Assembly (NCBI GenBank): GCA_946998225.1
Contig: CAMPYH010000001.1
Span: 388,094 to 452,093 of the forward strand
Direction of reading: 5' to 3'
Length of the DNA stretch: 64,000 bases
Source: an uncultured Clostridiaceae bacterium
GTDB taxonomy: Bacteria; Bacillota; Clostridia; TANB77; CAG-508
This document shows, one piece after another, positions 30,324-34,337 of this stretch. Each line of letters starts with the position of its first letter. Position 1 is the first letter of the stretch. Both the position numbers and the translations under genes were made by a program. The notes beneath the pieces are model-generated. The model did not search any database. It was not told where the DNA came from and was given only the letters and a program-made list of their open reading frames with translations.

Positions 30324-32450
30324 ATGATAGAAAAAAAATATGAGATAGAATTAGATGGAAAAAAATTAAGTTTTGAATTTTGTTTTATGGCAAAACAAAC
30401 AGATGTATCTGTACTTGTAAGATATGGAGATACAGCAGTTAATACAACTGTAGTTGTAGACAAGGAACCTAAAGAAGGTATAGATTTTTTCCCACTTTCT
30501 GTTGAATATGAAGAAAAACTATATGCTGCAGGTAAAATACCTGGAGGATTCAAAAAAAGAGAAGGAAAACCAACAGATGAGGCAATACTTGTATCAAGAG
30601 CTATAGATAGACCGTTAAGACCACTATTTCCTAGTGATTTGAGAAATAGTGTAGTTATTAATAACTTAGTTATTTCAAGTGATATAGACTGTTCTCCAGA
30701 GTTTGCAGCAATGGTTGGATCAAACCTTGCTGTACATATATCTAGTATTCCTTTTAACGGGCCTATTGCTACAGTAAATATTGGAATATGTGATGGAAAG
30801 TTTGTGTTAAATCCAGATTTAAAACAAAGAGATGAAAGTTCTTTAGTTTTAACTCTTGCTGGAAGCAAAGAAAAAATAGTTATGATAGAAGCAGGTGGTA
30901 AAGAAATACCAAATGATACTATGATGGAAGCTATTGAATTTGGACATAAATATATTAAAATGCTTTGCGACTTTTTTGCAAAAATTCGTGAAGAAATTGG
31001 AGAGCCTAAATTTGAATATGAGAAAATTGTTTTAGATGAAGAATATTTAGAATATATAGATAATAAATATAGAAAAACTTTAGAAGATGAACTAGTAAAT
31101 AAAAATAAAGGTGAAGTAGATAAAGTTATACAAAAAATAGTAAATGAAGAATCACAAATATTAAAAGATGAAATAAAGAAGCTTGAATCTAAAGATAAAT
31201 TAGATTTAGAAGCTATACGTAAAAAACAAGAACTACTTGGAAAATTAATTGAGTTTGTAAATAAACTTGAAAAAGATGTTGTAAGAAGAAAAATACTAGA
31301 CAAAGGTGAAAGAGTAGATGGCAGAGGATTAAATGATGTAAGATTACTTTCAGCATCTGTAGGATTATTTAAAAGAACACATGGATCAGGTATGTTTACA
31401 AGAGGTGAAACACAAGCTTTAACAATTACTACACTTGGAAGAACTAATGAAGATCAAAAATTAGATAATTTATCTGAAGTTGAATATAAAAGATATATAC
31501 ATCAATATAATTTCCCACCATATTCAGTAGGTGAAGCAAGAACATCTAGAGGACCTGGAAGAAGAGAAATAGGACATGGTGCACTTGCAGAAAAAGCGCT
31601 TGTTCCAGTACTTCCTAGTGAAGAAGAGTTCCCATATACAATAAGAGTTGTATCTGAAATAATGGGTTCAAATGGATCAACATCACTTGCAAGTGTTTGT
31701 GGTAGTACACTTTCACTTATGGATGCAGGTGTTCCTATCAAAAAACCAGTAGCAGGAATATCTGTAGGTCTTGTAACAGATAAAGATGGACATTATGAAA
31801 TGCCAATAGATATACAAGGATTAGAGGACTTCTATGGAGATATGGACTTTAAAGTAGCTGGTACTAAAGATGGTATAACAGCTATACAAGTAGATATTAA
31901 AATAGATGGATTAACTATAGAACAAGTTAGAAAAGCTTTAGACAAAACAGAAAAAGTAAGAATAAGAATTATTGATGATGTAATATTAAAAGCTATACCA
32001 GAGCCTAGAAAAGAAATATCTCCATATGCACTTAAAACAGAAATGGTAAAAATTGATCCAGATAAAATAGGAAAATTAATAGGTGCTGCTGGAAAGAATA
32101 TTAATAGAATTATTGAAGAAACAGAAACAGAGATAGATATAGAAGATGATGGTAGAGTTATAATCTATTCATATAATAAAGATTCAATTTTAAAAGCTAA
32201 AGAACTTGTAGAACTTTCTACAATAGAATACAAAAAAGGAGATTTAGTAGAAGGTGTTGTATCAAGTATAGTTAAATTTGGAGCATTCTTAACACTTCCA
32301 AATGGCGAAGAAGCACTTTTACATATTTCTAAAATCTCTAAAGAAAAGGTTAATAAAGTAGAAGATGTTTTAAAAATGGGACAAGTTGTAAAGGTTAAAA
32401 TAAATGATGTAGATGATGATGGAAAAATAAGTGTGGATGCTAGAATATAA
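30324..32450 (+). CDS. pnp: polyribonucleotide nucleotidyltransferase (PNPase)
   Basis: 708 aa. Two RNase PH domains (…RPLRPLFP…, …GSNGSTSLASVCG…), KH domain (GKLIGAAGKNINRI) and S1 domain at the C-terminus. Confidence 0.95.
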   Translation: MIEKKYEIELDGKKLSFEFCFMAKQTDVSVLVRYGDTAVNTTVVVDKEPKEGIDFFPLSVEYEEKLYAAGKIPGGFKKREGKPTDEAILVSRAIDRPLRPLFPSDLRNSVVINNLVISSDIDCSPEFAAMVGSNLAVHISSIPFNGPIATVNIGICDGKFVLNPDLKQRDESSLVLTLAGSKEKIVMIEAGGKEIPNDTMMEAIEFGHKYIKMLCDFFAKIREEIGEPKFEYEKIVLDEEYLEYIDNKYRKTLEDELVNKNKGEVDKVIQKIVNEESQILKDEIKKLESKDKLDLEAIRKKQELLGKLIEFVNKLEKDVVRRKILDKGERVDGRGLNDVRLLSASVGLFKRTHGSGMFTRGETQALTITTLGRTNEDQKLDNLSEVEYKRYIHQYNFPPYSVGEARTSRGPGRREIGHGALAEKALVPVLPSEEEFPYTIRVVSEIMGSNGSTSLASVCGSTLSLMDAGVPIKKPVAGISVGLVTDKDGHYEMPIDIQGLEDFYGDMDFKVAGTKDGITAIQVDIKIDGLTIEQVRKALDKTEKVRIRIIDDVILKAIPEPRKEISPYALKTEMVKIDPDKIGKLIGAAGKNINRIIEETETEIDIEDDGRVIIYSYNKDSILKAKELVELSTIEYKKGDLVEGVVSSIVKFGAFLTLPNGEEALLHISKISKEKVNKVEDVLKMGQVVKVKINDVDDDGKISVDARI

Positions 32451-32510
32451 GAGAAATAAACAACAAAAACAAACTAATAAAATAAAGAAAAAATAGCAAA
32501 AAAATAAAAG

Positions 32511-32545
32511 ATGTATCTAAGTAAAATTAATTAGATACATTTTTA
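32511..32545 (+). terminator. rho-independent terminator after pnp
   Basis: atgtatcta-(loop)-tagatacat followed by tttt. Confidence 0.55.
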
Positions 32546-32722
32546 ATTATAAAATGTTGATTTTAATACCGTTTCACAAAAAAATACAAAATGCAAATCA
32601 AAGGTTTAAAAATGGTATACATAAAATATATACTTTTGAAATTTTATTTGTTTATTTTTAAACATTTCTGGAATTTAACGAATTATGTGTATAACTTTTA
32701 AAATAATAGATGTTTTAATAGA

Positions 32723-32752
32723 GCTATCCACAGAGTTATCCACAATATCCAC
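32723..32752 (+). promoter_or_regulatory. cluster of three direct DnaA boxes (cTATCCACA, TTATCCACA, aTATCCACA)
   Basis: Read directly: agCTATCCACAgagTTATCCACAATATCCACAtaaaa. The consensus DnaA box is TTATCCACA. Located ~45-75 bp upstream of the plsX promoter. Confidence 0.6.
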
Positions 32753-32795
32753 ATAAAAATTATTACAAATATTTATGTAAATTGTTTTTAAAATA

Positions 32796-32824
32796 TTTGT
32801 ACAAGCATAAAAAATAATATAGAA
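32796..32824 (+). promoter_or_regulatory. candidate sigma-A promoter TTGTAC-17-TAGAAT for plsX
   Basis: ttgtac 32796-32801, tagaat 32819-32824. RBS aaagagg precedes ATG 32846. Confidence 0.4.
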
Positions 32825-32845
32825 TAGGAAAAGAAAAAAGAGGTA

Positions 32846-33853
32846 ATGATGAAAATATTATTAGATGCAATGGGAGGGGATTTAGCCCCAGTAGAAAACA
32901 TTAAAGGTGCATATGAGTTTTCAAAAGAAACAAAATATGATGTAGTGCTTTTAGGAGATAAAGAAAAATTAAATGAAGTATCTTTAGAGTTATATAATGT
33001 AGATATAGATAATCTTTCTCCTAGAATATCTGTTATACACACAACAGAAAATATTGATCCAAATGAAGTTCCAACAGTTGCAATAAAAAAGAAAAAAGAT
33101 TCTCCAATAGTTAAAGGATTACATGAATTAAAAGAAGGAAATGGAGATATATTTTTATCTGCAGGAAGTACAGGAGCTCTTTTAACAGGAGCTGTTCTTA
33201 TTGTAGGAAGACTTAAAGGAATTAATAGACCTTCTTTAGTTCCTACATTTAATCTAGGTAAAAATAAAATATTTTTATCTGATTCAGGAGCAAATACAAC
33301 TATTAGACCAATAAATCTTTTACAATTTGCTCAAATGGCAAGTATGTATGCGGAAATAGTTGAAGGAATAGAAAATCCTAAAGTAATGATGTTAAATAAC
33401 GGAGCTGAAAGAAATAAAGGTACAGATGTACACAAAGAAGCATATACTCTTTTAGAAGAAGAAACAGAAAAAGGAAATCTTAATTTTAAAGGTAATATAG
33501 AAGCAAGAGATGTCTTTAAAACAGATGCAAACGTAATCGTAACAGGTGGATTTGAAGGAAATGTCTTAGTAAAAAGCATTGAAGGCACACTTGAATTTAT
33601 ATCAGATAAAATTAATGAAAAGCTAAATAAAGTTAATAAGCTTTTTAGAAATATTATTAAAAAGAAAATAAAAGGATCAAGTGGAAGTATAGATTACAAA
33701 AAATGGGGCGGAGCTGTAATGCTTGGCATTAAAAATCCGGTTATTAAATTACATGGTAGTAGTGATCAAACAGCATTTTATTATACTTTAAAACAAGCAG
33801 AAAAAATTCTTGATTCAGGATATATTGAAAAGTTTAAAGAAAAGATGGAATAA
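32846..33853 (+). CDS. plsX: phosphate acyltransferase PlsX
   Basis: MMKILLDAMGGDLAP N-terminus, …GSTGALLTGA…, …VVTGGFEGNVLVKS…. Full-length PlsX family. Confidence 0.85.
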   Translation: MMKILLDAMGGDLAPVENIKGAYEFSKETKYDVVLLGDKEKLNEVSLELYNVDIDNLSPRISVIHTTENIDPNEVPTVAIKKKKDSPIVKGLHELKEGNGDIFLSAGSTGALLTGAVLIVGRLKGINRPSLVPTFNLGKNKIFLSDSGANTTIRPINLLQFAQMASMYAEIVEGIENPKVMMLNNGAERNKGTDVHKEAYTLLEEETEKGNLNFKGNIEARDVFKTDANVIVTGGFEGNVLVKSIEGTLEFISDKINEKLNKVNKLFRNIIKKKIKGSSGSIDYKKWGGAVMLGIKNPVIKLHGSSDQTAFYYTLKQAEKILDSGYIEKFKEKME

Positions 33854-33943: not shown

Positions 33944-34159
33944 TTAATTATATTTTTCAATTTTATATTTGTTAATTTCTTTTGATTCTTCATCCATTTG
34001 TTTTTGTTCTATTTTCCTATCTTCTAAAAGTGGTTTGTCATATTTAAAGTATGAAAAGATAAGTGGTGTAAGAACAAGCGCTAAAACAATGATTACAGTT
34101 TCTAATATAACTGTTAAATGTTCATCTTTTGACATAATTACTCCTTTATTTATTTTCAT
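33944..34159 (-). CDS. small single-TM membrane protein (hypothetical)
   Basis: 71-aa ORF with hydrophobic core VILETVIIVLALVLTPLIF. Overlaps the upstream small ORF by 14 nt. Confidence 0.35.
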   Translation of the reverse strand: MKINKGVIMSKDEHLTVILETVIIVLALVLTPLIFSYFKYDKPLLEDRKIEQKQMDEESKEINKYKIEKYN

Positions 34160-34337
34160 TTAATTCTATTTTTTTATCCATAATTGCATTTATTACTTGC
34201 TTATCTCTTGTTATAGTTAATTGATCAAGACGTCTTGTTTCAAGAAAAATATTAAGACGTATAAAGATTGCAAAATACATAAAAGCAAGGTAAAGTAAAA
34301 CAGCAATTATTAAAAGACAAATATTTTTTTTATTCAT
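34146..34337 (-). CDS. small single-TM membrane protein (hypothetical)
   Basis: 63-aa ORF, TM LLIIAVLLYLAFMYFAIFI, charged C-terminal part. Confidence 0.35.
   Translation of the reverse strand: MNKKNICLLIIAVLLYLAFMYFAIFIRLNIFLETRRLDQLTITRDKQVINAIMDKKIELNENK

Follow-up and report, generated by a model that had tools for sequence, protein, structure and literature searches.

A conserved array of three DnaA boxes upstream of plsX as a candidate link from the replication initiator to phospholipid synthesis

The matching of membrane growth to chromosome replication in bacteria is still poorly understood. In Bacillus subtilis, depleted or slowed fatty-acid or phospholipid synthesis alters, and lowers, oriC-dependent initiation (PMC4207641). 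Literature searches did not uncover a direct path by which the initiator acts on lipid synthesis, and full-text searches returned no paper linking DnaA boxes to plsX regulation. A cluster of DnaA boxes in the gap upstream of plsX raises the question of whether this site is selected, which protein would bind it, and what its binding would do. As a conserved candidate DnaA site in the plsX control region, it is a candidate return path from the initiator to lipid synthesis.

The cluster lies in a 64-kb stretch of DNA, referred to here as the window, from an uncultured low-GC, Clostridia-like lineage. The window has ~25% G+C and nearly every gene is on the + strand. The gene order around the cluster is dprA, rpsO, two Lia-like genes, pnp, the gap, plsX, two small minus-strand ORFs, miaB, and mutS. 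The pnp-plsX gap extends over 395 bp, from the pnp stop (32450) to the plsX ATG (32846). The two genes and the features between them are as follows.

30324-32450: pnp, polyribonucleotide nucleotidyltransferase
32510-32548, + strand: predicted intrinsic terminator of pnp, hairpin and U run (dG -13.5 kcal/mol, z = -6.0, 0/200 shuffles as stable)
32574-32625, + strand: second conserved block, CACAAA..TCAARTG..GTTNACATAA, ~100-150 bp upstream of the boxes
32686-32694, - strand: fourth, inverted box TTATACACA, 30 bp upstream of box 1
32724-32732, + strand: DnaA box 1, CTATCCACA, 1 mismatch, at position 1
32733-32735, + strand: spacer GAG, 3 bp, between box 1 and box 2
32736-32744, + strand: DnaA box 2, TTATCCACA, perfect consensus
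32745-32753, + strand: DnaA box 3, ATATCCACA, 1 mismatch, at position 1; abuts box 2
32763-32780: palindrome TTACA-N8-TGTAA (inside TATTACA-N6-TATGTAA), 5-7 bp past box 3
32797-32825, + strand: best sigma-A-like match, TTGTAC-17-TAGAAT, putative plsX promoter (-35 at 32797-32802, -10 at 32820-32825)
32846-33853, + strand: plsX, phosphate acyltransferase, monocistronic (TIGR00182, E = 7.8e-82, above the curated cutoff)

The three-box array and its setting upstream of plsX

The window reads AGAG-CTATCCACA-GAG-TTATCCACA-ATATCCACA-TAAAA, and the boxes are arranged head-to-tail. Their start-to-start distances are 12 and 9 bp, which correspond to gaps of 3 bp and 0 bp. A DnaA box was defined by ≤1 mismatch to TTATCCACA with an intact CCACA core, and all three boxes fit this definition (one perfect, two mismatched at position 1 only). 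An initial annotation of this DNA had described the same triple of one perfect and two mismatched boxes. The triple is present on the + strand, and the spacing of 12 and 9 bp and the 395-bp intergenic region are borne out by the sequence; only the position given for the array, 32723-32752, was 1 bp low. Across the 64-kb window there are 39 boxes with ≤1 mismatch versus 22 expected, and the plsX gap is the single place where ≥3 same-strand boxes fall inside 40 bp. Dinucleotide-preserving shuffles produced a pair in 99/1000 cases and a triple in 0/1000, and the window has no second triple, so the earlier remark that such clusters are rare by chance holds. The three-box array is real and non-random.

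Five lineages were compared, namely that of the window, L007/L008, L009, L010, and L134, together with strain variants (L001-L006). The relatives come from metagenome assemblies. Where a full PlsX existed, its identity to the PlsX of the window is 66% in L007/L008, 60% in L009, and 69% in L010. The arrangement N-TATCCACA-RAG-TTATCCACA-ATATCCACA lies upstream of plsX in the same orientation in 5/5 lineages, and 28/29 array positions are invariant across them; the remaining gap is barely alignable. Box 1 keeps its core TATCCACA in all five lineages and is variable at position 1 (C, C, G, A, A), and the spacer between boxes 1 and 2 is GAG in four lineages and AAG in one. Box 2 is kept in 5/5 lineages, as is box 3, including the A at position 1. 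Among seven strain variants, 22 columns of the gap are variable, with 0 of them within 32709-32783. In L007, maf replaces pnp as the upstream neighbor, yet the array stays upstream of plsX, and a perfect inverted DnaA box has been added 37 bp downstream of box 3. The inverted box of the window, TTATACACA, shows no conservation outside the window species, and its counterpart in L010 is degenerate (TTATTCATA). These alignments indicate that the boxes are under purifying selection together with plsX, and that the site is real and selected. The five plsX-linked lineages are kin, and the kept position could therefore partly reflect shared ancestry.

Density of boxes was also scored with the clustering index A of Ishikawa 2007, which is affinity/distance over four successive TTATNCACA boxes with ≤1 mismatch and has a threshold of A > 0.3. 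In B. subtilis, every one of the eight stable DnaA sites exceeds it (PMC2533591). The index is 0.69 at the boxes of the plsX gap, and the next best place in the window reaches 0.08. The relatives score 0.70 (L007), 0.57 (L010), 0.26 (L134), and 0.14 (L009) on a scale whose threshold was calibrated on B. subtilis. L134 and L009 fall below 0.3 because only three boxes are conserved; the fourth box used for the index differs from lineage to lineage.

More distant relatives of PlsX, at ~50% identity and in a plsX-acpP-rnc context (L130-L133), have no boxes and carry another upstream motif (TTAGTAGTCAAAT-like). The association of the boxes with plsX is therefore confined to the wider lineage to which the window belongs. 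A search of GTDB genomes with the single PlsX protein gave no match, so no close representative was reachable that way. The nearest named PlsX proteins are from Clostridia MAGs and are ~47-49% identical.

The transcription of plsX is likely to be autonomous from its upstream neighbor, in that the pnp terminator is predicted to isolate plsX from transcription coming from upstream. A terminator hairpin is also present 3' of plsX. With terminators on both sides, the plsX promoter should lie within the ~300 bp that hold the boxes. The best sigma-A-like match begins 44 bp past box 3, which agrees with the -35/-10 pair that the initial annotation had placed ~45 bp downstream, but its -35 is not conserved and its leader would be very short, at only ~13-16 nt. 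The distance from the -10-like hexamer to the ATG is only 14-20 nt for the best match (window, L007). Hexamers resembling a -10 element (TAGAAT, TAAAAT, TAGAAT, TATAAT) are found 66-72 bp past box 3 in four lineages, and no -35/-10 pair is convincingly kept across the lineages. Because of the short leader and the unconserved -35, the true plsX promoter may lie elsewhere, possibly upstream of the boxes. Promoter candidates upstream of the boxes, near the conserved TTTTAAAATAG and GTTNACATAA blocks, are without a partner hexamer and were rejected. Searched against Rfam, neither the gap nor the window as a whole gave an RNA family, and none of the small ORFs examined in the pnp-plsX gap looks real. 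No acpP, fab, or fapR is near plsX in the window lineage. An AMP-binding (acyl-CoA/ACP ligase-like) gene is located at 59126-60931.

Two further elements in the gap are conserved. In the palindrome region, TATTACA and TTATGT.AA are invariant in five lineages, with the TATGTTA form in L010 and L134. The palindrome has one further match in the window, versus 0.23 expected by chance, and it gives no RNA-fold signal (z = -0.38). Its half-site TTATGTNAA is not enriched as a recurrent regulator motif (9 matches versus 12.5 expected), and half-site-like sequences upstream of dprA and two other genes have no consistent placement. In an informal comparison, none of the FapR, FabT, TnrA, CodY, Spo0A, LexA, NrdR, and Zur operators known to us fits the palindrome. 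In the second conserved block, GTTNACATAA is nearly invariant in the lineage alignments, and in L009 and L010 its CACAAA part takes the form of a weak DnaA box, TTAAKCACA.

Recurrence of the arrangement and comparison with origins

One genome per GTDB species was scanned for TATCCACA-N3-TTATCCACA-N-TATCCACA, and the gene contexts of the resulting loci were checked with Pfam. At least 119 GTDB species genomes, spread over several phyla, contain the three-box arrangement (box, 3 bp, box, 0 bp, box), with ~0.001 expected by chance. Taxa among the matches listed are Clostridia, Lachnospiraceae, Bacilli (Exiguobacterium, Thermoactinomyces, Paenibacillus, Ligilactobacillus), Negativicutes, Spirochaetota and Leptospira, Elusimicrobiota, and Bdellovibrionia. 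Of the 121 copies among the matches listed, 73 carry AAG or GAG as the free 3-bp spacer. The recurrence of the arrangement with this preferred spacer hints at an optimal geometry for cooperative DnaA binding.

Origin-adjacent copies (dnaA, dnaN, or rnpA) account for 13 loci, or ~11% of copies, among the matches listed. Their contexts are rnpA<-module->dnaA, dnaA->module->dnaN, or a position adjoining dnaN-recF. One of these, L045 (6565-6593, box orientation), has the boxes followed by GGCC and (CTA)5(TTA)3 between dnaA and dnaN. The (CTA)5(TTA)3 run corresponds to 3'-GAT-5' trios on the opposite strand, which makes L045 a textbook unwinding module.

The recurrent non-origin neighbors among the matches listed are a dnaD-like/dnaC-like operon (10) and hrcA-grpE-dnaK (9), followed by dnaE-DUF1294, a class II aminoacyl-tRNA synthetase, hpf, pta, rpiB, and coaX. 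None of the module copies among the matches listed neighbors plsX. These non-origin copies lie in unusually long gaps (median 562 bp), and the orientation of their neighbors has no strong bias (++ 28, -+ 23, -- 21, +- 12, again among the matches listed); 12 of the listed copies sit in gaps between convergent genes. By this distribution, the three-box unit appears to be a general, widely reused DnaA-binding geometry, for which each lineage uses its own loci. About 9/10 of the sampled copies are non-origin, and for uncultured bacteria the geometry could serve in the prediction of DnaA regulons. An inverted box TGTGGATAA is found 20-25 bp past the triple, as in L007, in three low-GC 'Clostridium sp.' MAGs (L023, L042, L075). 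The triple and inverted box of these MAGs sit upstream of pta, whose product belongs to the PTA_PTB family, in the same superfamily as PlsX.

The presence of the arrangement at origins raises the reading that the plsX gap contains an origin-related element, either a secondary origin or a displaced or remnant BUS that still nucleates a DnaA filament and opens the AT-rich DNA downstream. The initial annotation had named a remnant or secondary origin among its candidates. The box array is identical to those of real dnaA-dnaN unwinding modules (L045), and the 29-bp arrangement at plsX matches L045 and other origin loci, with the geometry of a BUS (PMC8287927, PMC6669920). Like the Bacillota BUS (B. 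subtilis incC boxes 6 and 7; L045), the plsX-gap boxes are head-to-tail, read 5'-TTATCCACA-3', and are followed by AT-rich DNA, and their gaps of 3 and 0 bp agree with the rule that tandem boxes are ≤3 bp apart (PMC8287927). Past box 3, the conserved TTATTACA frame reads TTA TTA (3'-AAT AAT-5' on the other strand) and then ATA TTT ATG. It passes the permissive (NAN)x3 rule (PMC8287927) at offset 15 only, but chance alone would produce the (NTN)x3 pattern in DNA of 75% A+T. A BUS has ≥3 DnaA-trios (3'-GAT-5' consensus, central A) located 0-16 bp from a box, usually past a GC-rich spacer. Unlike a BUS, the plsX gap shows neither a GC-rich spacer nor GAT trios; in each of the five lineages the conserved frame runs for just two AAT-type triplets and is interrupted at the third (CAA or CAT). 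Moreover, the spacer from box 3 to the conserved element varies between 5 and 7 bp, which shifts any trio register.

The surroundings of the site also differ from those of an origin. To the left and right of it, GC skew is positive (+0.2 to +0.4) in the window as well as in L007, whether resolved at 2 kb or at 600 bp, and through the window it stays between +0.14 and +0.39 to ~62 kb, where a minus-strand gene begins. There is no inflection at 32.7 kb, and the GC-skew check that had been suggested for this locus thus reveals no switch in either the window or L007. Flanking genes are co-oriented rather than divergent, with pnp (or maf) and plsX as neighbors in place of dnaA, dnaN, or rnpA, and the left-side genes would be head-on to forks leaving the plsX-gap site. 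Searches with phmmer using Pfam-verified seeds found no homologs of DnaA, DnaN, RnpA, RecF, YidC, or MnmE in any window ORF. The description of the cluster as far from any dnaA gene is accordingly valid within the 64-kb window. Strong conservation and purifying selection contradict a decaying remnant. An origin-related element is thus very unlikely, and the plsX-gap site is not considered an origin because skew and gene orientation are unchanged there and the window is without dnaA and dnaN.

Candidate functions of the plsX-gap site

The ligand of the array is almost certainly DnaA, because box 2 is the exact consensus, the arrangement is the same as at genuine origins, and L007 has gained an extra consensus box. 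The alternative is that a different protein binds these DnaA-box-like repeats, such as a lineage-specific lipid regulator that recognizes the TATCCACA direct repeats and the palindrome. Such a protein would be in keeping with the conserved TTACA-N8-TGTAA 5-7 bp from the boxes, with the lack of fapR beside plsX in the window lineage, and with the different upstream motif of the ~50%-identity relatives. It would have to coincide with a central box that is the exact universal DnaA consensus, with a whole three-box arrangement, RAG spacer included, that recurs at verified origin regions and across several phyla, and with an extra box in L007 that is again a perfect DnaA box, and we regard it as very unlikely. 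We know of no lipid regulator operator (FapR, FabT) that resembles the three-box repeats.

The closest known systems are the non-origin DnaA-box clusters of B. subtilis and its DnaA regulon. The B. subtilis clusters and regulon comprise sda, ywlC, yydA, gcp-ydiF, ywcI-vpr, and thdF-jag, with A values of 0.36-1.64 (PMC2533591), a range that includes the 0.69 of the plsX gap. At these clusters, DnaA activates sda and represses ywlC and yydA, and the clusters have been proposed to buffer active DnaA (PMC2533591). The plsX-gap site resembles them in its closely packed consensus or near-consensus boxes, its intergenic location away from dnaA, and its conservation in related species; intergenic location and conservation in relatives (395-bp gap, five lineages) are also features of the DBC type. 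The B. subtilis clusters are stably bound by DnaA and regulate the adjacent gene. They contain 4-8 boxes, unlike the conserved core of only three boxes here, and the list of eight stable DnaA-binding regions in B. subtilis does not include plsX.

Other systems are more distant. E. coli datA, DARS1, and DARS2 are functional analogs, being DnaA-box clusters in non-coding DNA outside the origin through which the DnaA pool is adjusted. In datA, which stimulates DnaA-ATP hydrolysis, a specific set of boxes is spread over a larger region and an IHF site between essential boxes is required, and the DARS cores consist of three boxes that include oppositely oriented ones. The three conserved plsX boxes are all direct and on one strand, unlike the DARS orientation, and the phylum differs. 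The site also resembles DnaA-regulated promoters, such as dnaA in its autoregulation and Pseudomonas aeruginosa gidA at oriCII (PMC13438810), where boxes are just upstream of a promoter, here a putative one. In contrast to these promoters, the candidate target is a lipid-synthesis enzyme and the site is not beside the origin.

We favor, with somewhat better than even confidence, a DnaA-responsive control element for plsX, with DnaA titration as a by-product. This reading draws on the B. subtilis analogy and on the module being locked to monocistronic plsX in every lineage. The array would be a candidate high-affinity, cooperative docking module for DnaA in the private 5' control region of plsX, and the boxes share the ~300-bp terminator-bounded region with the putative plsX promoter. 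DnaA, most likely in the ATP form, would occupy the three boxes as a short oligomer and alter the frequency of RNA polymerase initiation at the nearby downstream plsX promoter. Membrane phospholipid synthesis would thereby be tied, at its first committed step, to the replication-initiation state, and a few DnaA molecules would also be kept off the origin by the site, as in the B. subtilis clusters. The direction of control is guessed to be repression of plsX at high DnaA-ATP, because the boxes point at the promoter, which is the filament direction in origin modules such as L045, and because the inverted box of L007 is near the -35. Binding of DnaA, its effect on plsX transcription, and the direction of that effect are all inferred.

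A pure reservoir or titration site, similar to Bacillus DBC or to datA, would instead tune a distant origin and leave plsX expression unaffected, with its adjacency to plsX incidental. In the window, L007, and L010, the index A exceeds the threshold derived from B. subtilis, and the clusters of that species have been proposed to govern how much active initiator is present (PMC2533591). In other phyla, the genes next to the module are unrelated and their orientation is little constrained, and the gaps are long and sometimes lie between convergent genes (among the matches listed). The weak orientation bias and the long gaps are explained by a structural or titration role no less readily than by promoter control, and these cross-phylum traits, together with a conserved core of three boxes versus ~four in the B. 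subtilis rule, count against plsX control. Titration is weakened in turn by the small number of DnaA molecules that three boxes hold, by L009 and L134 being under the index threshold, and by the finding that most stable B. subtilis DnaA sites also regulate the adjacent gene (PMC2533591). The plsX linkage, the orientation, and the rough distance to a -10-like hexamer are kept in five lineages despite maf in L007, and titration would not need that. Titration alone is therefore a serious but less probable explanation than control of plsX, although sequence alone cannot separate regulation from titration. Either way, the initial proposal of a functional DnaA-binding site, as a regulated plsX promoter or a titration cluster, is strongly supported by an array that is invariant in five lineages amid diverged surroundings, and by the identical arrangement at genuine origins and many loci across phyla.

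A wider form of the favored plsX-control reading is that the three-box unit (TATCCACA-RAG-TTATCCACA-N-TATCCACA) is a portable, cross-phylum DnaA 'landing pad', connected to other genes in other lineages, that here makes DnaA a direct cell-cycle regulator of plsX, the gateway to membrane phospholipid synthesis. This form is speculative and we consider it unlikely. If true, it would complete a circuit in which replication initiation and membrane growth act on each other, given that an effect of lipid synthesis on oriC-dependent initiation is established in B. subtilis. In a bolder version, a DnaA-ATP filament may spread over or partly open the AT-rich promoter DNA, and the origin-unwinding mechanism may be reused for transcription control.

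Other features of the window

Downstream of plsX, tandem small ORFs at 33944-34159 (- strand) and 34146-34337 (- strand) encode 71 and 63 aa with hydrophobic N-terminal halves. They are the only minus-strand genes of that stretch and have no Pfam family. In L007 and L009, a gene pair of an ArsP_1 permease and a DUF1980 protein takes their place.

A perfect single DnaA box at 27241-27249 precedes a strong dprA promoter (TTGACA at 27288, 17 bp, TATAAT) by ~40 bp. It was rejected as a functional site; the box is not conserved in L007 and is therefore probably due to chance or strain-specific.

No Pfam family was assigned to a 2802-aa ORF (10328-18736) or to a run of nine consecutive ORFs (19533-27161). 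Considered with the sortase and the Cna_B protein that other parts of the window encode, these ORFs suggest a fast-evolving Gram-positive surface or accessory region. A tandem repeat, AAAAAGAAT x3, is located at 27165-27200, right after the stop of a 515-aa ORF and before the terminator that precedes dprA.
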